Shown piece after piece: positions 3,058 through 22,682 of a DNA stretch of 22,682 bases (its first letter is position 1; every line of letters starts with the position of its first letter). The position numbers were made by a program, and so were the translations under genes. The notes beneath the pieces were generated by a model. That model was not told the DNA's origin. It did no database searches and saw only the letters and a program-made list of their open reading frames with translations. Location of the stretch: contig DAORJX010000044.1 of the NCBI GenBank assembly GCA_035439285.1, forward strand, positions 1 to 22,682, written 5' to 3'. This DNA comes from Leptospiraceae bacterium (GTDB lineage: Bacteria > Spirochaetota > Leptospiria > Leptospirales > Leptospiraceae).

Positions 3058-3741
3058 TTATAAGTTAAGTGCTGCTTTTGCTTTTGCACTATAATCGACT
3101 GTCATAGTTTCAAATTTTGCAGAGAAAGCTATGCACATGATGCAGAAGTTAATCATATTTTCGTAATAAGGATGAAAGGTTAAGTTTAAATATCCTTCGC
3201 TGTGAATTTTTCGAATATTTACAAATCCTTTTCCGCGACCATTGATGGCTTCTGACTCGGTTATCGCCAAATTGATATTAGTCAGAGTAATCTTATATAG
3301 CTGTTCCACTTGAGGATTCCATTTTTTTAAAAGCCTACCGGCGGATAACAAATGAGAAAAAATTTCGTTCTTCAATACTGAATTCACAGGATCAAATAGA
3401 TCGTTAGATTCAAATTTTTTGTAGCAACTCGCTAGTATACTCAAATTGCCTTGAATTTTTTTTAACTGTTGTCTATATAATTCTAAAAATCTAAGAATGC
3501 TTAAAAATGTAGAAGGTCTTCTATCAAATTTTAATTTTTTTATTTTTCCAGTCGGAGTGCTAAACGTCTCTAAGTCTTGCGGTTTAATTTCAAATGGATC
3601 GTTTACAAAAAATTTCTCTAAGAATTCATTCATCGCAATTTCATATTTTTGCGGAATTGGACATTCCAATTTTAGAATACGACTATCCGGCGCGTCTTTG
3701 TTCACATCTAATAGGTGTTTAAAAATTTCATCGAATTCCAT
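3058..3741 (-). CDS. Hypothetical protein (227 aa), no recognisable domain
   Basis: Long ORF in the same orientation as the upstream hybrid HK, 105 bp downstream of it. Soluble, no signal peptide, no motif I can assign. Confidence 0.5.
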   Translation of the reverse strand: MEFDEIFKHLLDVNKDAPDSRILKLECPIPQKYEIAMNEFLEKFFVNDPFEIKPQDLETFSTPTGKIKKLKFDRRPSTFLSILRFLELYRQQLKKIQGNLSILASCYKKFESNDLFDPVNSVLKNEIFSHLLSAGRLLKKWNPQVEQLYKITLTNINLAITESEAINGRGKGFVNIRKIHSEGYLNLTFHPYYENMINFCIMCIAFSAKFETMTVDYSAKAKAALNL

Positions 3742-3846: not shown

Positions 3847-6231
3847 CTACAATATACGAGTTGGTAGTATTTTAATGATTTCGGTCAGTAAATCTCTTTT
3901 GCTCATAGGTTTTCGAATGAATCCGTTGCAGTATTTTTTAATTTCTTCTTCTGCGTCTTTCATCACATAAGCAGTGAGTGCTATAATTGGAATGTCTTTT
4001 AAGTTTTCCGCTTCTTTGATCATTCGACTTGCATCGAGTCCATCTAAAATTGGCATTCGAATATCCATTAGTATGATATCTGGCTTTAAATCACGAGCAA
4101 GTTCAAATGCTCTTTTTCCGTCCGAAGCTTCAAAGAATTCAATTTCATATTCGCTTAAAAAATCTTTTACCAGATTACGGTTGTAATCCACATCATCTGC
4201 AATTAGAAGAGAAAATTTTGGCAATCCTAAACTGGCATTATTTATATCTTCTTCTTTTAAATTTTCATTCATTATCTGAATGTCCGGCAAATGAAGAGTA
4301 AACGTTGTGCCGACTCCCACTTTACTCTGCAAATCAATCTTTCCTTTCATCATCTCTGCCAATTTACAAGAAATTGTTAGTCCGAGTCCTGTTCCTCCGA
4401 ACTTGCTTATATTCTGATCTAATTGTTGATAGAAAGCCTCAAAAATTTTTTCTTGTTCCGCGTCCGTTATTCCAATTCCAGTGTCTTCTATAGCTATCAT
4501 CAAATCCATCTTGTTCGGATTATTGCGATTAAACACAGAATTCACTTTTACAGTTACAGATCCCGACTCTGTAAACTTAATTGCATTTCCGATAAGATTG
4601 GAAAGAATTTGCCTAAGACGAAGTTCATCTACCAAAATTATTTTTGGAAAATTTCCGGAGATTACAAATATTAATTCAACATTCTTTTCAGTAGATTTTA
4701 AATTAAAAATTTCTTGTAACTCACTCAAAACACTATGCATCAATACAGGAGAGTTTTTGATCTCCATCTTCCCTGCTTCAATTTTTGATAAATCTAAAAT
4801 ATCATTGATGAGGTTTAATAGGTTTTTGCCGCTGCTCATGATTCCATCTAGATATCTCCGTGCTTTTCCCTCTTTGATTTCATTCTTCAATAGCTCAGAA
4901 AATCCAAGGATTGCATTCATCGGGGTTCTTATTTCATGTGTCATATCGGCAAGAAATTCACTCTTTGCTAATGTTGCAATCTCAGCGTGCTCTTTTGCTT
5001 TTATTAATTCATTCTCGAATTCTTTTGTGCGGGTAATGTCTGTTATTACACCTACTATGTATTTGTCTCCAGCCTCATCTACGTAAAGACGTTTTCGAGT
5101 GAGAATAGTTTTTCTTTGATGAAAGGAATCTGTGAACGACTCTTCATTTACAACATCTTCTTCGTCAATGAGGACTTTATTATCATTGAACCAAAAAATT
5201 TCAGCCTCTTCTTTTGGAAAGAAATCATAATCTGATTTGCCCAGCAATTCTTCCCGTTTGAACCCGACGAAGCTACAAAATGCATCATTTAATAAAATCC
5301 AATTGTGTAGTATATCTTTCACAAAGACGGGACTAGCGATTGCATTGATGATGCTATCTAAAAAATTTCTTACTCCTAAAAGTCTTTGTTCATAGTATTT
5401 TTTTTCACTAATGTCTTTGCTATTAGAAGAATAACCTATTGGCTCGCCCTGGTCGTTTGTTATGAGTGAAACTGTCAGAAGTGTCTGAATATTACTTCCA
5501 TCTTTTTTTCTTTGTATCAATTCTCCCGACCAACCACCTTTGTTTAGGATTGATTCAATGATCTCAGGCGTTTGTATTGTATCACGAGAATTGAAAATGT
5601 CTACATTAAGTCCTATTAATTCGGGCTCTTCATATCCGTAAAGCGCATAAGCAGAAGTATTCGCATAACGCACTATTCCGTGCATGTCTGCAAATACAAC
5701 TGCTTCCCAATTGTTTTTGAGAATATGCTTATAGATTTTTAATTCTTCTTCTCGATTTTTTCGCTCTGTAATGTCTTGGGTTAATCCGAGGAATCTTATC
5801 GGCTTATTGTCATTATACTCTATGCTGCCTTCACTTAATACATATTTAATCTTTTCATCGGGCATGAGGAGTCTATATTCAATGGAAAAAATTCTTTTTA
5901 ATTTTATGGCTTCTCTCAATTTCTTGCGCACTCCAGTCAAATCATCTTTGTGCACAAAACTTAGATATGCCTCTACGCTAGAAGAAAATTCATTTTCATT
6001 TCTTTCTAGAATTTGATAAATTTCAGAAGACCATTCAATTTTTTTGGAAGCGACATCTAGATTGAAAGTAGCAATCTTACCAATTTTAAGAGCATGAGAA
6101 AGAAGATATTCTTTTTGTGCAAATTTATTATTAATCTCTGCTTCACAGTCAATGAGAGTTTGCATTAAGACTTCAGTGTCTTTCTCACCTTTAGCAAGCT
6201 TTGCAATTTTTTGAAAAAGTTCTCTCGTCAT
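3847..6231 (-). CDS. Cytoplasmic hybrid sensor histidine kinase / response regulator (three PAS-like domains + HisKA + HATPase_c + REC)
   Basis: H-box HEIRTPMNAILGFSELL. N-box LRQILSNLIGNAIKFT. G-boxes IEDTGIGI and GGTGLGLTI. C-terminal receiver LLIADDVDYNRN...DIILMDIRMPILDG...KP. The N-terminal ~440 aa hold repeated PAS-type segments and no TM helix. Confidence 0.9.
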   Translation of the reverse strand: MTRELFQKIAKLAKGEKDTEVLMQTLIDCEAEINNKFAQKEYLLSHALKIGKIATFNLDVASKKIEWSSEIYQILERNENEFSSSVEAYLSFVHKDDLTGVRKKLREAIKLKRIFSIEYRLLMPDEKIKYVLSEGSIEYNDNKPIRFLGLTQDITERKNREEELKIYKHILKNNWEAVVFADMHGIVRYANTSAYALYGYEEPELIGLNVDIFNSRDTIQTPEIIESILNKGGWSGELIQRKKDGSNIQTLLTVSLITNDQGEPIGYSSNSKDISEKKYYEQRLLGVRNFLDSIINAIASPVFVKDILHNWILLNDAFCSFVGFKREELLGKSDYDFFPKEEAEIFWFNDNKVLIDEEDVVNEESFTDSFHQRKTILTRKRLYVDEAGDKYIVGVITDITRTKEFENELIKAKEHAEIATLAKSEFLADMTHEIRTPMNAILGFSELLKNEIKEGKARRYLDGIMSSGKNLLNLINDILDLSKIEAGKMEIKNSPVLMHSVLSELQEIFNLKSTEKNVELIFVISGNFPKIILVDELRLRQILSNLIGNAIKFTESGSVTVKVNSVFNRNNPNKMDLMIAIEDTGIGITDAEQEKIFEAFYQQLDQNISKFGGTGLGLTISCKLAEMMKGKIDLQSKVGVGTTFTLHLPDIQIMNENLKEEDINNASLGLPKFSLLIADDVDYNRNLVKDFLSEYEIEFFEASDGKRAFELARDLKPDIILMDIRMPILDGLDASRMIKEAENLKDIPIIALTAYVMKDAEEEIKKYCNGFIRKPMSKRDLLTEIIKILPTRIL

Positions 6232-6239
6232 GGATTTAA

Positions 6240-6605
6240 TTATTTGTTTATTAGAATATCTTTTGGAATAGAAATTAATCGCTTCTTATACGATTTTTTA
6301 TAAGATTTTTTAAACTTTGAATGACAGGTTTTGCAGGACGAAAGATACTTTCCTGAGCTAAGTGCATCGGAAGTTATCTTTTCCCAAACCTCTTTGTCTT
6401 CTGGAATTGCAAAGCTCGGCATTGCCTCTAGCATTTTCTTCAAAGGTTCTTTATCGCCTTTCTTGAATTTTTTCTCTGCCAATTCCACATGATCTTCCAT
6501 AAAGTCATGCATTTTCATCTCCACAAATTCTCCTTCTTGGGAGAATAGCCACCCCGCCGAAAGGCAGGTTATCGTAAAACTAATACTTAAATAGAATCTT
6601 CTCAT
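6240..6605 (-). CDS. Secreted CXXCH protein, cytochrome c'-/class II cytochrome c-like (putative heme sensor/carrier)
   Basis: Signal peptide MRRFYLSISFTITCLSAGWLFS. A mostly helical ~100-aa mature region with a single CKTCH motif near the C-terminus, as in class II cytochromes c. Only 8 bp upstream of the hybrid HK. Rests on one motif. Confidence 0.4.
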   Translation of the reverse strand: MRRFYLSISFTITCLSAGWLFSQEGEFVEMKMHDFMEDHVELAEKKFKKGDKEPLKKMLEAMPSFAIPEDKEVWEKITSDALSSGKYLSSCKTCHSKFKKSYKKSYKKRLISIPKDILINK

Positions 6606-16034: not shown

Positions 16035-17282
16035 TTATAAAATTGGAAATCGAACCCAAACACATACATCTTTCATATTGTTTTCTCGTCTCATATTATT
16101 GTCTGTCGTATAAAACGAAATACTCCCTTTGTGTAAATCAATAATTTTATTTACAACTGTCAAACCCAGACCAAATCGAAATGTTTCCTGCATGAATCTA
16201 TCATCTACAACATTAGTCAATCGAAAAAATGGTTCAAAGATTTTATGCGCATTACTCTCCGTTATCCCCACTGTTCCGTCTGAATTCTTGTAGGCGGGAT
16301 TCAGGATTCTGATTCCAAAATCCGTTTTATCATGTGAAAATAGAATATAGATTGTATCTCCATCTTCCGAGTATTTAATTGCATTTGTTAATAATTCATC
16401 AAAGACTAGCTTCAAATTTTCTGGGCTGGCAGTAATTGATCTTCCGGCTAGGTCTCTTGGAAAATCACCCATAACTATCTTCTGATTTTTAATTCCAGCA
16501 ACTGGTTTCATACCTTTTACCATTTCGGTTAATGCAGCATAGAAATCTTTCAGGGTTAATTTACCTGTATAAAAATCCTTTTCCGCTAATATGGCTTGTG
16601 TTTTAGTTAAACTATCACTTAGTTTTAGAATTTCATCGTAGTTGTCTTTTAATAGGTGATAAATTTTTTCATGAACTAAGTAAACTTTTTTCTCTTCATC
16701 CAATTTAGCTTTTGAAAATAAAATACTCAGTGTGCTAATAAGTGATCCGAGACCACTTCCATGGAAGAAGCTAATATTGATTTGGTGTATTAATTCATTT
16801 GCAAGAGATTCGACTTTTCTAGTATCAAGTTCTTTTCTCCAATCAAATACTTTAATCATGGATTCGAAAACTTGTTTCTCGTTTGATTTAAAATCAGAAA
16901 TCTTGGACATCACCTTTCCATAGGTAATCGCCTTTGTTATCGCAAAATGAAAATTGAATTTATAAATTGGGTAGGAGATAATATCATACACATGATAGTT
17001 TTCCATCATTTGTAGAAACTTGTCTCCTTCCTCTCGATTGATTAATAGAATAACCAATTGAAATGGATATTCTGAAAGAATAATTCCAAGATTTTTTTGA
17101 TTTTCACTACTCGTGTCAAGAAAATCATAAACGAGTAGCCATGTGTCATCTGATTTGAGATAACTTGTGAGATTATCCATATTATCCGCTACGTTGAAAG
17201 CGTAAGTAAGATCATCAACGTAGGTTTTCACCTGCTCTGTTATTTCTTTGTTTTGAGTATAGAGTAATATTTTATCAGACAT
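16035..17282 (-). CDS. Histidine-kinase-like ATPase protein with N-terminal pseudo-receiver domain (non-canonical DHp/H-box)
   Basis: The C-terminus has N-box FDELLTNAIKYS, an F-box-like FEPFFR and G2 box FGLGLTVVNKI. The N-terminal ~120 aa have a REC-like beta/alpha pattern (WLLVYDFLD) but lack the DD pair and the conserved Lys. The only H-box candidate is a HisKA_2/HWE-like ELIHQINISF. The start overlaps the cheB stop by 8 nt (ATGTCTGA), so it is translationally coupled within the che operon. Confidence 0.6.
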   Translation of the reverse strand: MSDKILLYTQNKEITEQVKTYVDDLTYAFNVADNMDNLTSYLKSDDTWLLVYDFLDTSSENQKNLGIILSEYPFQLVILLINREEGDKFLQMMENYHVYDIISYPIYKFNFHFAITKAITYGKVMSKISDFKSNEKQVFESMIKVFDWRKELDTRKVESLANELIHQINISFFHGSGLGSLISTLSILFSKAKLDEEKKVYLVHEKIYHLLKDNYDEILKLSDSLTKTQAILAEKDFYTGKLTLKDFYAALTEMVKGMKPVAGIKNQKIVMGDFPRDLAGRSITASPENLKLVFDELLTNAIKYSEDGDTIYILFSHDKTDFGIRILNPAYKNSDGTVGITESNAHKIFEPFFRLTNVVDDRFMQETFRFGLGLTVVNKIIDLHKGSISFYTTDNNMRRENNMKDVCVWVRFPIL

Positions 17283-18354
17283 ATTGTCCTGAGTAGTTTA
17301 AATAATTCTTTATCTTATTCACCATTTGAGAAAGAGGAAGTTGTTCTTCCACACCACCGATTTCGTAAGCAACTTTCGGCATTCCGTATATGAGTGCCGA
17401 CTGTTCACTTTCGCCAATGGTTCTCGATCCAGCTTCTCGCATTGCTAGTAACCCTTTTGCTCCGTCCATTCCCATGCCTGTCAAAATAACGCCAATTGTC
17501 TCACTGGCAAGTTTATTATCAACAATGGAATGAAATAGAACATCCACAGATGGTCTATGTCCATTGACTTTCTCGGCACGAGTTAAGCCAACCGTGTGAT
17601 TAATTCCATTTCTTTTATTTACCACTAAATGAAAGTCTCCTGGTGCAACGTAAATTCTTCCTGTCTGAATTATATCTTGATCTTTTGCTTCCCGCACATC
17701 AAGTCCGAAATCTTTAGAAACTCCCTTTGAAAAAGTAGCAGTAAATCCTGGCGGCATATGCTGAGTAATCACAATGCATGGAAAATCTCTAGGCACTGTA
17801 GATAGCACCTGACGTATTGCTGTCACTCCACCTGTTGATGCACCAATAGCAATAAGATTGTATTTACTCTTTCCATTTTTACCTGCCATCGGATTATTGA
17901 TGAGTGGCATGGATTTATATTTTAATTGCTTGAGCCATCTATCAATATTGATCGTAGATGCTGTTTTAATCTTTTGAATTAATTCTGCTTGCGTTGATTC
18001 GAGAGTAATCGCTCCACCATCTGGCTTTGTGACAAAGTCAACTGCACCATATTGCATTGCTAATATTGCTTTCTCTGAACCTTCCTCAGTTGTGCTACTG
18101 ACCATGATCACAGGGATTGGATACTGAGGCATAAGCTTTCGCAAAAATTCCACTCCATCCATGCGAGGCATTTCTACATCTAGAGTTAAAACATCGGGCT
18201 CTTTTTCTGGAATCAGCTCGCTTGCTTCAAAAGGATTTGATGCTTCTCCTACCACTTCAATGCGCGGATCGGTCGTTATCATTTTTCGAATAACATTTCG
18301 AACGACTCTTTGGTCGTCCACAATAAATACTTTAATTTTTTTGTTATTGTCCAT
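17275..18354 (-). CDS. cheB: Chemotaxis response regulator protein-glutamate methylesterase CheB
   Basis: N-terminal REC KVFIVDDQRVVR...DVLTLDVEMPRMDG. C-terminal CheB domain with GASTGG, ITQHMPPGFT, GMGMDGAKGL and IGESE. Confidence 0.9.
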   Translation of the reverse strand: MDNNKKIKVFIVDDQRVVRNVIRKMITTDPRIEVVGEASNPFEASELIPEKEPDVLTLDVEMPRMDGVEFLRKLMPQYPIPVIMVSSTTEEGSEKAILAMQYGAVDFVTKPDGGAITLESTQAELIQKIKTASTINIDRWLKQLKYKSMPLINNPMAGKNGKSKYNLIAIGASTGGVTAIRQVLSTVPRDFPCIVITQHMPPGFTATFSKGVSKDFGLDVREAKDQDIIQTGRIYVAPGDFHLVVNKRNGINHTVGLTRAEKVNGHRPSVDVLFHSIVDNKLASETIGVILTGMGMDGAKGLLAMREAGSRTIGESEQSALIYGMPKVAYEIGGVEEQLPLSQMVNKIKNYLNYSGQYV

Positions 18355-20224
18355 GTGCTGCTTCGGATTCTTTGTTTTCCTTGTAGTAATTATTAATAAA
18401 GAATCTAATGTCTAGAATCATTCCAATATTCCCACTTCCCAGGATTGTGCAACCTGAAAAGCCCTTTGTTCCTTTTAAATAATCCGGAATTGGCTTAATG
18501 ACAACCGATTGATTTCCTACAATTCCATCAAATACTAGTGCTAGCGAATTATTCTTATACTCCACAATAATTACATATAAAGAATTTTCGTAGTTAGAGT
18601 CCTTGTCACTTGAATCGTGATTGAGTAATCTCTCTACGGAGACAACGGGTATTAGCTGCTCTCGGAAGCGAATTACTTTTTTATCCTGATCGATATAGTC
18701 GATTTTCGATTCTGCCAAATTCAGTGTTTCTTTTACGTCTATTGTGGGGATAATATAGAATACCCCGTTGTAGATTACCACCATACCTTCAATGATAGCA
18801 ATTGTAAGAGGTAGCTTTAGAATGAAGGATGCTCCTTGGTCTTTCTTCGTCTTGATTTCAACATCGCCGTTGATCTTTGCTATATTTCTGCGAACTATAT
18901 CAAGTCCTACTCCGCGTCCTGAAATATCAGTTACTTTATCACTAGTCGAGAATCCAGGTTGAAAAATAAAATCCCAAATTCTTTCGTCTTTTAGATTTTC
19001 GTCTTCTCCTTCTTTGATTAATCCGCGAGCCATTGCTTTTTTTAAAATCCTGTCTCTATCTAAACCGGCACCGTCATCAGAAATAATAATCCAAACTTCA
19101 TTTCCTGAATGCATTGCTTCAATCTTGATATGTCCGGATTCTACTTTGCCTTTTGCTAATCTTTCTTTGCTAGTTTCCAATCCATGGTCGATACAATTGC
19201 GGATAATATGAACTAGTGGATCTGTTAATATTTCAAGGGCATTCTTATCAATTTCTGTTTCTTTTCCTGTAACTTGAAGACCCACTTTCTTTCCGGTTTT
19301 TTGTGCTAAGTCTCGAACAAGTCGTTCCATTTTATTAAATAAACCTTCGAGGGTAATCATCCTTAGCTGCAAGGATACTTCTTGTAGATTACGGACTACT
19401 TTACGTAAATAGGAAGATTGAATAGAAAAGTTCGGAAGATCTAGTTCTTTGATGTCTGGATTTTGAGTTACAAGAGATTCAGCTATCACTAGCTCACCAA
19501 TCATGTCTAGTAGGTAATCTAATTTCTCTGTTTCGATTCGAATGTCTCTTTTTACTGTAGCTTGTCCATTCGAATTACCGTTATTTGCCTCTATAGTATT
19601 TTGAATCTTTTTTTCTAAAACAGGATTTTCTTGCGTGGCTCTTTCTGTAATATGTTTATCTAACTTATCAGATTCGGAATTTTCCGGAGTAGGGGCAGGT
19701 TCATTCGAAACTGGCAACTCCTTATTATCCTCTTCTGTTATTGGAGTATCAGAAAGCACAATTTTCTTTTTGAAGATTCCAAACCTAGGCTCTTCTTTCT
19801 TTGGCTCTGAAGACTCTGCTTTTAGATTTTCTTTTATATAGAAGAGTCGGGGAATTAAAGTATCCGCCTTCTCTTTATACATTGTATCTGTTTTGTTTTC
19901 GTTTAAATTTGTGAATATTTCGTATAGAGTATCTCTTGCTTCCATGAAGAGCTGAATCATTTTTTGATCAAGAAGAGAATTGTCATTTCTTACAATCTCT
20001 AATAATGATTCTGCTGAATGCGATAGGTTTACTATCACATTGAAATTGAAAAATCCCGCATTTCCTTTCAGTGTATGGAAATAGCGGAATAATGAATTTA
20101 CCTTATCTGGGTCAACCGCTGACTCAGTTAAACTTTTTTCCAATTGGATCAGAATTGCTTCTGCTTTATCCAATATCTCTTGTGAATCAAGCACAAGGTC
20201 TGAAAGTTCATTTTCTCCAAGCAT
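18344..20224 (-). CDS. cheA: Chemotaxis histidine kinase CheA
   Basis: Hpt P1 motif FRYFHTLKGNAGF. Acidic/Pro-rich linker. Dimerisation domain, then HATPase LVHIIRNCIDHGLE, DDGAGLD, FQPGFSTS, GRGVGLDIV. C-terminal CheW-like domain. Confidence 0.9.
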   Translation of the reverse strand: MLGENELSDLVLDSQEILDKAEAILIQLEKSLTESAVDPDKVNSLFRYFHTLKGNAGFFNFNVIVNLSHSAESLLEIVRNDNSLLDQKMIQLFMEARDTLYEIFTNLNENKTDTMYKEKADTLIPRLFYIKENLKAESSEPKKEEPRFGIFKKKIVLSDTPITEEDNKELPVSNEPAPTPENSESDKLDKHITERATQENPVLEKKIQNTIEANNGNSNGQATVKRDIRIETEKLDYLLDMIGELVIAESLVTQNPDIKELDLPNFSIQSSYLRKVVRNLQEVSLQLRMITLEGLFNKMERLVRDLAQKTGKKVGLQVTGKETEIDKNALEILTDPLVHIIRNCIDHGLETSKERLAKGKVESGHIKIEAMHSGNEVWIIISDDGAGLDRDRILKKAMARGLIKEGEDENLKDERIWDFIFQPGFSTSDKVTDISGRGVGLDIVRRNIAKINGDVEIKTKKDQGASFILKLPLTIAIIEGMVVIYNGVFYIIPTIDVKETLNLAESKIDYIDQDKKVIRFREQLIPVVSVERLLNHDSSDKDSNYENSLYVIIVEYKNNSLALVFDGIVGNQSVVIKPIPDYLKGTKGFSGCTILGSGNIGMILDIRFFINNYYKENKESEAAHGQ

Positions 20225-20232
20225 TGTAGAAC

Positions 20233-20721
20233 CTAAGCAATTCCTTTTACATCTTTCTCATGAATAAACTTATTCAGGTCGATCAATATTTTCAATGTAT
20301 CGCCTGACTTTCCAATGGAATCGACGAATCGCTCCATATTTGCTTCTTCAAATCCTGGTGAGGGCTCAATACAATCTTTTGGAATTTTTAAAACTTCTTT
20401 GACTCCATCGACGATAAGCCCTGCACTTAGATTGTTAAAATTCATAATCAATATGCAGGTGAATTCGGTATAGTCTATCTTGGGTAAACCGAATCTTAGC
20501 CGCACATCAATGACGGGAATAATCTTCCCTCGAAGGTTGATTACTCCCTTAACATATTCTGGTAAGTTTGGAACAAAAGTCACAGGTTGAAACGCAATGA
20601 TTTCAATCAAGTAACGAATCTCTATACCATACTCTCTTCCATCGATGAAAAAGATGATATAGAGATCCTCCATAGTATCTTCAGATTCCTCTAATTGTTC
20701 TTCTTCAAATGTCGTTGCCAT
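20233..20721 (-). CDS. cheW: Chemotaxis coupling protein CheW
   Basis: 162 aa with the CheW fold signature YIIFFIDGREYGIEI...VKGVINLRGKIIPVIDVRLRFGL...AGLIVDGVKEVL. Confidence 0.9.
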   Translation of the reverse strand: MATTFEEEQLEESEDTMEDLYIIFFIDGREYGIEIRYLIEIIAFQPVTFVPNLPEYVKGVINLRGKIIPVIDVRLRFGLPKIDYTEFTCILIMNFNNLSAGLIVDGVKEVLKIPKDCIEPSPGFEEANMERFVDSIGKSGDTLKILIDLNKFIHEKDVKGIA

Positions 20722-20733
20722 ACACTTTACTCC

Positions 20734-22682
20734 TTACTTCAAATCAATTTTTTTCTTATTCGAGGATGACTGTTGCTCTCTCTTTCTGTCATCTTTTGAT
20801 TTCTTAATTTGAAATCTCTTCACCATTGCCTGGAACGCTTCTGCTTGGCTAGACAACTCAAGACTCGCTGCTGAGCTTTCTTCTGCTGTAGCTGCTGCAC
20901 TCATTGTCACCTGTGAAATCTGATTGATACCAGTTGTAGTCTCTACTACCGACGAAGACTGCTCAATCGAAGCACTCGCAATGTCTTTCACGAGATCTGT
21001 AACATCCACAACACCAGCTGTCATCTTATTTAATTCGTTTGCAGTTCTTCCTGCAATGTCCATACCAGAGCGAACTGTCTTAATCGATCCTTCAATCATC
21101 TTAGTAGTTTCTTTCGCAGCATTCGCACTACGAGAAGCGAGGTTACGCACTTCTTCTGCCACAACGTTGAAACCTTTTCCATGTTGACCCGCGCGTGCCG
21201 CTTCCACAGCAGCGTTTAATGCGAGAATGTTTGTCTGGAATGCGATTGCATCAATTTCTTTGATGATCTTTGCAATGTTTTCGGAAGTTTCACTGATTTC
21301 TTCCATCGCTTTGAGCATTCCCTTCATTTCGTTATTACTAGAAACTGCTTGGTCTTTCACGTTCATAGCCTGATCACTTGCGTCCTTCGCATTCTTCGCG
21401 TTATCCTTAGCTTTGAGTTCGATTACTGCCAGCGTTGAAGTAATCTCTTCTACGCTACTAGCTTGTTCGTTAGAACCTTGGGAGAGAGATTGGCTGGAGT
21501 CAGCCACTTGTCTAGAGCTAATGAGGATTTGATCCGAAGCATTGATGATTTCACCAATGAGCTCATTGAAGGAATCAACGATGAGAGTTAAGGCTTTTTT
21601 GATTTCCGTAAAATCTCCCATGAAGTCTTTCGTTACTTCGACGGTTAGGTCACCTGCTGACATAGAAGATAGAATTCTAGAAATCTCACCAACATATTCA
21701 TTAAGAGTCACTAAACTAGTATTTAGGGCAGTCTTGATAGTTGCATGATCTCCCTTGTAATCGCCCATCATTCTAGCTTGTAAATTTCCTTTCGATAGTT
21801 CAAGGAGAACTGCCGAAGCTTCTTGCACTGGAAGGATGACAGCGTCTAATGTGTTGTTTACCCCATCCACAATCTTACGGAAGTCACCTTGGTGTTTGGT
21901 CGCATCTGCACGAGTTGCAAGCTTACCATCAATAGCCGCTTTCGCAAGCATACCGGCATCAGCCACAAGTGCGTTTACGTTTTCAATACAACGGTTGAGG
22001 TTGTTCTTTAGAGTGTTAAAATCCCCATTATAAGTATCCGTAATTTGATTTGGAATTGCACCACGAGAAATTCTATCTACATAATCAGCGGCAACATTGA
22101 GAGGACCTATCACCGAGTCTAATGTCTGATTAACTCCTTCCACAATTCTACGATAGTCGCCCTGGTGTTTAGTCGCATCTGCACGTGTTGCAAGCTTACC
22201 ATCAATAGCTGCTTTCGCAAGCATACCGGCATCAGCCACGAGAGCATTTACATTATCAATCGCGTTGTTTAAGTTGTTTTTAATTGTGTTAAAGTCTCCA
22301 TTGTATGTATCCGTAATCTTAGTCGGAATAGCCCCACGAGAGATTTTGTCTACATAATCCGCGGCAACATTAAGAGGACCTATCACAGAGTCTAACGTCT
22401 GGTTAACCCCTTCTACAATCTTACGATAATCGCCTTGGTGTTTAGTAGCATCAGCGCGAGTTGCAAGCTTACCTTCTACTGCTGCTTTCGCAAGCATACC
22501 GGCATCAGCCACAAGTGAGTTTACATTATCAATCGCATTGTTTAGGTTGTTCTTAAGGACATTGAAGTCGCCATTGTATTGATCAGTGATTTTCGCAGGT
22601 ATTGCCCCACGAGAGATTTTGTCTACGTAATCCGCGGCAACATTAAGAGGACCTATCACAGAGTCTAACGTCTGGTTAACCC
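20734..22682 (-). CDS. Methyl-accepting chemotaxis protein, 5'-truncated by the window edge; poly-HAMP repeat array + MA signalling domain
   Basis: The C-terminal MCP signalling domain has the highly conserved tip [34 protein letters not shown] and Glx methylation-heptad regions. Upstream are at least 3.1 copies of a 91-aa repeat, each made of two HAMP-like units (G-x-I/L-P...D-x-x-GDF-x-x-L/I-x-x-N-x-N). The 'M' at 22659 in the ORF track is a GTG Val codon inside a repeat. The frame stays open to 22682 and continues ...VNQTLDS, so the gene extends beyond the window. Confidence 0.9.
21838..22682. repeat. 273-bp in-frame tandem repeat (at least 3.1 copies, continues past window end) inside the MCP gene
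   Basis: Unit boundaries 21838-22110, 22111-22383 and 22384-22656, with a partial fourth copy at 22657-22682. acctatcac recurs at 22105, 22378 and 22651, which is exactly 273 bp apart. The copies are near-identical at the DNA level by eye, encoding [12 protein letters not shown](K/R)ISRGAIP...TLD(S/A)V. Confidence 0.85.

Follow-up and report, generated by a model that had tools for sequence, protein, structure and literature searches.

A protein encoded between cheB and cheY in Leptospiraceae belongs to an uncharacterised family of kinase-derived proteins lacking a conserved phospho-acceptor histidine

The DNA analyzed here, a stretch of 22,682 nucleotides from a Leptospiraceae bacterium (assembly GCA_035439285.1, contig DAORJX010000044.1, positions 1 to 22,682; hereafter the window), contains a chemotaxis operon in which a gene encoding a receiver-like domain and a histidine kinase-type ATPase domain, here named X, is located between cheB and cheY. 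The question raised by this locus is whether X is a second kinase for CheY or a phosphatase-like modulator of it, the two functions suggested in a preliminary description of the sequence. X was identified, with high confidence, as a member of an uncharacterised family descended from receiver-controlled histidine kinases (Rec-HK). As judged from its sequences, this family has kept the nucleotide site and gained a glycine-rich loop, without a conserved phospho-acceptor histidine. Because the conserved phospho-histidine is missing, X is probably an unrecognised chemotaxis accessory protein with CheY as its target, and not a normal kinase. The functional statements made below rest on sequence, predicted structure and gene order.

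An AlphaFold model of X was built from a 150-sequence alignment (predicted local distance difference test, pLDDT, 89.9; predicted template modelling score, pTM, 0.80); it replaced an earlier model from 31 sequences, which was poor at residues 140-190. According to the model, X has the known Rec-HK layout of receiver (REC), aS helix, DHp and ATP-binding (CA) domains. The list of open reading frames (ORFs), the model and the motifs gave the following features:

16035..17282, minus strand: gene X, 415 amino acids and stop codon; REC-like domain, aS helix, DHp-like hairpin, CA domain
16962..17282, minus strand: pseudo-receiver, residues 1-107, with the (beta/alpha)5 fold kept
16815..16961, minus strand: aS-type linker helix, residues 108-156; modelled as helix over 108-152, continuing receiver helix 5
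16587..16814, minus strand: DHp-like helical hairpin, residues 157-232
16764..16796, minus strand: degenerate H-box ELIHQINISFF, residues 163-173; His166 codon at 16785-16787
16746..16763, minus strand: HGSGLG, residues 174-179, an instance of the family signature (Q/H)GxGxG
16038..16562, minus strand: CA domain (HATPase_c), residues 241-415
16368-16400, minus strand: N box DELLTNAIKYS
16263-16313, minus strand: atypical G1 region IRILNPAYKNSDGTVGI
16218-16241, minus strand: F box IFEPFFRL
16152-16178, minus strand: G2 box RFGLGLTVV

Pfam recognised HATPase_c alone in X (residues 287-413, E 1.2e-14); no match to Response_reg (PF00072), HisKA, HisKA_2/3 or HWE was obtained even at E<=1. As an internal control, both hybrid kinases of the window matched Pfam HisKA at 1e-19 to 1e-22. 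NCBIfam gave generic kinase-domain matches only, far below their cut-offs. CheZ, CheX, CheC/FliY, CheD and CheR were rejected as identities of X, none of them giving a Pfam or NCBIfam match, in agreement with the preliminary description, which had set X apart from CheC, CheD, CheX, CheZ and CheR; a confident match was found neither to any che accessory family nor to a HisKA kinase of standard type with a normal receiver. The best whole-chain Foldseek match was LvrB of Leptospira. Fold comparison of the model scored highest with CusS (19.3; 212/217 residues, 2.9 Å), followed by HprS (19.0), HK853 (18.3), DivL (18.1), VicK (17.7), LvrB (16.9) and PDK2 (15.5).

The region directly N-terminal to the CA domain was modelled as a two-helix DHp hairpin, composed of a helix at residues 157-173, a non-helical segment at 174-177, a helix at 178-191, a short beta-hairpin at 193-202 and a helix at 205-232. 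Profile-profile alignment (hhalign) to canonical HisKA kinases gave a probability of 99.7. In this alignment, on which the equivalence of the positions rests, His166 falls on the HisKA phospho-histidine and the family consensus xNLKTS(L/F) pairs with HELRTPL. The fold and profile comparisons identify the region as a HisKA-derived DHp hairpin and not as HWE/HisKA_2. An HWE/HisKA_2-like identity had been proposed for the motif ELIHQIN (residues 163-169); this part of the proposal was rejected, since no Pfam match was obtained at E<=1, an F box is present, and the CA domain (best matches VanS, HK853 and WalK) and the DHp match those of the HisKA class. The accompanying points, that a canonical HisKA H-box is missing and that the histidine of ELIHQIN is the candidate for the phospho-histidine position, agree with the alignment.

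The canonical HisKA H-box (H-E/D-x-x-T/N-P) is absent from X, which reads HQINIS. It is followed by the glycine-rich loop, which represents a 6-residue insertion relative to HisKA (a gap in hhalign) and is predicted to break helix alpha-1. Column statistics drawn from 150 diverse family members showed that this loop is close to invariant: Q174 was found in 130 and H174 in 14 members, G175 in 139, and G177 and G179 in 148 each. The preceding linker carries the family motif FDW(K/R)xE, in which position 148 is Trp in 101/150 members, as in X, and Tyr in 27/150. Within the protein, evolution is slowest in the DHp-like domain (86-95% identity among close orthologs, against 54-73% in the REC-like domain).

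Position 166 itself varies. The residues counted among the 150 members were H (29), Y (20), E (18), S (14), R (12), D (11) and Q (10), and in the che-embedded subfamily, counted at the level of 50%-identity clusters, His and Lys/Arg occur at about 11:8. Orthologs in the same operon context carry Arg (L028/P0023 and L017) or Lys (P0019) at this position, and L017, from a CheA-X-CheY locus, has no His anywhere in its DHp-like domain. In the more distant type-3 relatives described below, the residue is H (L. interrogans), L (L. biflexa) or F (L. ilyithenensis). All these variants keep the glycine loop and the CA motifs. A substitute histidine was also sought among the 150 members and rejected: the only His-rich columns, H384 and one aligned to N396, both lie in the CA domain, and none was found outside it. 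With column 166 variable and His-rich columns confined to the CA domain, the family has no conserved phospho-acceptor histidine. The simplest reading of these variants is that selection at 166 acts for a basic or bulky residue and not for a phosphorylatable one.

The CA motifs, in contrast to position 166, are nearly invariant. X has the N, F and G2 boxes of a HisKA-class CA domain, and its PDB sequence matches were VanS, HK853 and WalK; the preliminary description of a bona fide HATPase_c domain with these three boxes is confirmed, although the atypical G1 box had not been mentioned. E296 and N300 are present in 147/147 of the aligned members with a residue in the column, K303 in 144, P351 in 143, R354 in 142, and G371 and G373 in 144/144. 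Position 328 is N in 120 and S in 23 of the 150. In the deep profile alignment N328 falls on the G1 Asp, and PAYKNSD then appears as a 7-residue insert. D335 is conserved in the che subfamily only.

The N-terminal domain of X keeps the (beta/alpha)5 CheY-like fold and has lost most of the receiver chemistry. The hallmark positions compare as follows:

Acidic pair: E/D9-D10 in the family, T9-Q10 in X
Phospho-acceptor: D53 in the family, D53 kept in X
Proline of DxxMP: P57 in the family, T57 in X
Conserved Thr/Ser: T/S81 in the family, I81 in X
Switch aromatic: Y101 in the family, I101 in X
Conserved Lys: K104 in the family, Y104 in X, unique among the 150 members

Five of the six receiver hallmarks are thus lost, being replaced by T9/Q10, T57, I81, I101 and Y104, and the active-site set (DD, D, T/S, K) is incomplete. 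The absence of the Asp pair and of the Lys had been recognised before; that the phospho-acceptor D53 is still kept had not. From its sequence, the window protein would not be phosphorylated on its receiver, and the phospho-chemistry appears to have been lost in the lineage of the window. The pseudo-receiver is probably a derived state, because a member with an intact receiver, P0023, fills the same CheB-X-CheY slot. It is also the fastest-evolving domain, with a nonsynonymous substitution rate (dN) of 0.17-0.21 against 0.02-0.06 elsewhere in X, which is three to ten times faster. Even so, the domain is under purifying selection, the ratio of nonsynonymous to synonymous rates (dN/dS) being approximately 0.09-0.15, and approximately 0.05-0.06 for the whole gene; dS is saturated and these ratios are rough.

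A search with the middle domain (residues 132-284), covering 1.84 billion representatives, returned 366 clusters at 50% identity, 313 of them at E<=1e-10. Nearly all of these clusters are of approximately 410 amino acids, with the middle domain at about 133-283. The architectures are REC-mid-CA (the majority), REC-PAS-mid-CA and PAS-mid-CA, and none of ten diverse members scanned with Pfam matched HisKA. Judged from the named matches only, all members belong to Leptospirales or to other spirochetes. In databases the members carry generic names ('response regulator', 'hybrid sensor histidine kinase/response regulator', 'ATP-binding response regulator'), and literature searches found no published study on any member. 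Rec-HK proteins, pseudo-receivers, kinase-derived pseudokinases and second kinases in che clusters are all known already; the undescribed combination is that of a decayed H-box with an invariant QGxGxG insertion, an Asn that probably takes the G1 Asp position and recurrent embedding in che operons across an order.

In the window the order of the chemotaxis genes, all on the minus strand, is MCP-CheW-CheA-CheB-X-CheY, where MCP stands for methyl-accepting chemotaxis protein:

20734..22659, minus strand: poly-HAMP methyl-accepting chemotaxis protein, C-terminal part; first operon gene seen in the window
20233..20721, minus strand: cheW
18344..20224, minus strand: cheA, complete, with Hpt, dimerisation, HATPase_c and CheW-like domains
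17275..18354, minus strand: cheB, receiver and methylesterase; its stop overlaps the X start by 8 nucleotides
15657..16016, minus strand: cheY, 119 amino acids; Pfam Response_reg E 3.5e-24

The ATG of X lies inside the 3' end of cheB, which reads ...caatATGtcTGAtaaa, the 8-nucleotide overlap being ATGTCTGA; an AGGA is found 6 nucleotides upstream. The TAA of X is separated from the cheY ATG by 18 nucleotides, and cheY has its own AGGAAG. The sequence and the ORF list therefore agree with the earlier statement that X is translationally coupled to cheB and sits just before cheY. The window CheY is canonical (D8/D9, D52, T82, K104), with Trp101 at the switch position. Pfam scans found no CheZ, CheX, CheC or CheR encoded in the window, and no STAS gene is present in its operon.

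Conservation of X in the che operons of relatives was examined by scanning a single genome for each species and then searching the loci by tblastn, the window Che proteins serving as queries. The gene was found repeatedly, in three operon arrangements. In type 1, which comprises the orthologs of X (31-86% identity), the order is MCP-CheW-CheA-CheB-X-CheY(-CheY), with CheA-X-CheY instead in two loci from metagenome-assembled genomes (MAGs). The hosts are four Leptospiraceae MAGs, a Leptonemataceae MAG, other spirochete MAGs and saprophytic Leptospira of at least eight species (Leptospira soteropolitanensis, yanagawae, chreensis, abararensis, ilyithenensis, jelokensis, vanthielii and levettii). 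CheY follows X directly in 20/21 type-1 loci with downstream sequence, and the gene order is kept across genera at 31-37% X identity. Among Leptospiraceae metagenome genomes, orthologs are 98-72% identical to X, and down to 72% identity the frame is intact and of the same 415-residue length.

Type 2 (27-30% identity) has Pro at position 166 and is encoded upstream of CheW-MCP-CheA-CheB-CheY. These genes, at approximately 5500-6860 in L032-L036 and L038, belong to a second che operon of saprophytic Leptospira; L. ilyithenensis has two tandem copies. Their N-terminus of approximately 130 residues is not a receiver, has no Pfam match, is possibly PAS-like, and is fused to the same middle and CA domains. 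Type 3 (21-25% identity) has an intact receiver, is located upstream of CheY-(STAS)-CheA and occurs in all of Leptospira, L. interrogans among them; L043/L044 also carry it. The L. interrogans type-3 gene (P0310; L069 3924-5186) is the second gene of a nine-gene operon encoding PAS-HK, X'', CheY, STAS, CheA, MCP, CheW, CheD and CheB, X'' being the type-3 protein; a STAS (anti-sigma antagonist) gene thus stands between cheY and cheA, two genes downstream of X''. This gene order matches that of the la2421-la2429 operon, polar disruption of which lowers reversal frequency according to Lambert et al. (2015), as cited in PMC13066512; LA_2421 corresponds to LIC_11528 (PMC8308593). Some paralogs of the family have no che linkage. 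The window organism probably has several family members, because its relative L001, a 5.16-Mb contig with an 88%-identical X ortholog, also encodes a type-3 paralog (P0324, 425 amino acids, Phe at the H-box position).

Several neighbouring genes deserve description. The MCP ORF opens with three near-identical repeats of approximately 95 residues, a poly-HAMP array; it starts less than 25 nucleotides from the window end and is probably truncated, the L001 homolog having 1490 amino acids and many HAMP_2/HAMP_N3 matches. Directly downstream of cheY, an ORF of 830 amino acids (13068-15560, minus strand) matches the major vault protein (MVP) shoulder (9e-24), the Vault_3 repeat (2e-8) and SPFH/Band 7 (5e-7), and appears from its sequence to encode a bacterial MVP-like protein next to the che operon. 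The closest relatives keep it at the same place with 88-93% identity; at the saprophytic Leptospira loci it has no counterpart. The window clade has one CheY and then the MVP-like gene downstream of X, and the saprophytic Leptospira (L004 11259-14473, L019-L026) have two CheY genes followed by a PAS kinase of 828 amino acids. A MASE1 hybrid kinase comes after the MVP-like gene on the minus strand. The two canonical hybrid kinases of the window (3847-6231 and 10299-12752, minus strand), with PAS x3-HisKA-HATPase-REC and MASE1-PAS-HisKA-HATPase-REC organization, have normal H-boxes. ORFs 3058-3741 (minus strand, 227 amino acids) and 6240-6605 (minus strand, 121 amino acids) gave no Pfam match at E<=0.001.

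Three described proteins and one paralog were compared with X. LvrB, the prototype Rec-HK of Leptospira, can be phosphorylated on D56, carries H161 in a canonical H-box, is a proven kinase for LvrC and is switched via its receiver (PMC13269768). X shares with it the domain order REC, aS helix, DHp, CA, the size (approximately 380-415 residues), the bacterial order and the distance between receiver and histidine, which is nearly the same. X differs in its dead receiver, decayed H-box, QGxGxG insert, atypical G1 box and che-operon location, and the identity is only 13-17%. X has the Rec-HK architecture of the LvrB type without a phosphorylatable receiver. CheS3 of Rhodospirillum centenum, encoded in the Che3 cluster, has a receiver phosphorylated by CheA3, autophosphorylates and is the phosphate donor of CheY3 (PMC3868531). 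By this published description X resembles it as a second kinase-like protein with an N-terminal receiver in a che cluster with a single-domain CheY, and some family members share its REC-PAS-kinase-core layout. The CheS3-CheA3 wiring is a model for those relatives of X whose receiver is intact; unlike CheS3, the family has no conserved phospho-histidine and X has no phosphorylatable receiver.

DivL of Caulobacter crescentus (PDB 4q20) is a pseudokinase that senses whether a response regulator is phosphorylated (PMC4211667). By analogy, X may be a kinase core in which the H-box histidine is neither required nor conserved and which has turned to the recognition of a single-domain response regulator. 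DivL differs in having Tyr at the histidine position, PAS inputs and no receiver, whereas X retains the His; DivL acts in cell-cycle control, and X stands in a chemotaxis context. The paralog compared was P0310 of L. interrogans (NCBI name 'ATP-binding response regulator'), which belongs to the same family: it shares the CA motifs of X, has NSIHSLKTSLSQGSGIGS as middle-domain signature and is also che-embedded upstream of CheY. Its identity to X is approximately 21-25%; its receiver is intact, and the operon around it is a different one.

The reading of X that we put forward, and that we consider about as likely to be right as wrong, is that X, a pseudokinase working independently of His, docks CheY and acts on it either as a phosphatase or as a sensor. 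X would dimerise, and its conserved DHp-like hairpin would dock the adjacent CheY in the way that kinase DHp domains dock response regulators. Phosphate would not be relayed through His166; X would instead change or read the level of CheY~P. The likeliest form of this action would be that of a nucleotide-dependent CheY~P phosphatase or sink, because the operon carries no CheZ, CheX or CheC; alternatively, X would sense CheY~P in the manner of DivL. In bifunctional HisKA kinases, dephosphorylation of the regulator depends on DHp residues beside the His and takes place while the CA domain has nucleotide bound. In the ancestors of X and in many of its relatives, CheA-dependent phosphorylation of the intact receiver may switch the core via the aS helix; in the window protein this input would have been lost and the pseudo-receiver would serve as a structural or interaction module. 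Of the two functions suggested earlier, a phosphatase-like modulator of CheY fits these data better than a second kinase and, on sequence grounds, stays a candidate.

Several observations weigh against this reading. The canonical phosphatase residues are absent from X, which has Q167 at H+1 (against E/D) and I170 at H+4 (against T/N), the nearest phosphatase-like residue being N169 at H+3 only. Strict nucleotide motifs are easier to explain by catalytic use of ATP. The docking of CheY on X is a prediction of a kind that a single-chain model is unable to show. N328 falls on the G1 Asp in one profile alignment; phmmer and the shallower alignment put D335 there instead. Finally, His166 is present in the window protein and in 16/17 CheB-X-CheY loci, and because of this retention the X clade could consist of genuine kinases. 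In that case X would be a CheS3-like second kinase that autophosphorylates His166 and phosphorylates, or also dephosphorylates, CheY, with the pseudo-receiver as a constitutive or protein-regulated input. The alignment of His166 with the phospho-histidine is in favour of such a kinase, as are a receiver-to-histidine spacing similar to that of LvrB (Y104-P105 to H166, compared with D56/H161; PMC13269768), the intact N, F and G2 boxes with D335 conserved in the X clade, and the adjoining kinase and regulator genes, which are typical of cognate pairs; R. centenum CheS3, a REC-containing kinase of a che cluster and the sole donor to CheY3 (PMC3868531), provides a precedent. We nevertheless regard this, the main rival reading, as doubtful. 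Orthologs in the same slot have Arg or Lys at 166 with the other conserved features kept, the subfamily as a whole is split between His and Lys/Arg, and the helix, which has no HisKA match, no acidic residue at H+1 and no Pro at H+5, is broken by the glycine loop, while the G1 Asp is probably replaced by Asn. The earlier suggestion of a second kinase is weakened by the same distribution of residues at 166 and by the lack of any His in the DHp-like domain of L017.

A distinctly unlikely explanation is that X is a GHKL enzyme with a non-histidine target, either a Ser/Thr kinase (anti-sigma or PDK type) whose partner could be a STAS protein, MCP or CheA, or a regulatory ATPase with the glycine loop in its substrate or phosphate site. 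It would account for CA motifs that are invariant while the His varies. The N box is of the ExxxN form, with a Glu four residues ahead of the Mg-binding Asn, a form also found in SpoIIAB/RsbW and in PDKs; the same form, however, occurs in bona fide HisKA_2/3 kinases. The STAS gene near the L. interrogans type-3 paralog, and the existence in Leptospira of LvrC, a REC plus Bergerat anti-sigma protein (PMC13269768), are in line with this explanation; the window operon has no STAS gene, and no Ser, Thr or Tyr is invariant in the DHp-like domain of the 150 members (S171 95/150, Y201 100/150). Matches to HATPase_c_2, which would also be in its favour, were weak and sub-threshold (E 0.012-0.025; for X 0.025, 15 bits against a cut-off of 27.4), and with a DHp hairpin and an F box present, an anti-sigma-type GHKL Ser kinase (RsbW/SpoIIAB/LvrC) was rejected. 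That X is the decaying, functionless remnant of a Rec-HK is scarcely credible. The lost catalytic residues of the receiver, the degenerate H-box and the atypical G1 box could be taken as signs of decay; the frame is nevertheless intact in relatives as distant as 72% identity, the predicted fold is a confident one, and the low dN/dS, in the REC-like domain also, together with a gene order maintained across genera effectively refutes a pseudogene.

A wider proposal, which we consider unlikely, is that the whole family forms a new class of chemosensory component that has dropped the His phosphorelay and uses its nucleotide site and QGxGxG loop for a chemistry new to two-component systems. Such a component may be a CheY~P phosphatase that is gated by nucleotide, switched by the receiver and equipped with a new catalytic loop, or may directly carry out an ATP-dependent modification of CheY or of another partner. 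If this were true, the new class would include the second gene of the main L. interrogans che operon.

Chemotaxis in Leptospira is poorly understood, and its che operons hold genes with no counterpart in E. coli or Bacillus. Across the order, the family described here is found in che operons of three kinds, among them the L. interrogans operon whose disruption alters reversal frequency. Its natural variation, with receivers intact or dead and with His, Arg, Phe or Pro at position 166, amounts to a ready-made set of mutants. The function of X, once known, would add a component to spirochete chemotaxis, maybe a hitherto missing phosphatase of CheY~P, a feedback element or else a second kinase, and the family would illustrate the re-use of a kinase core that has lost its histidine.

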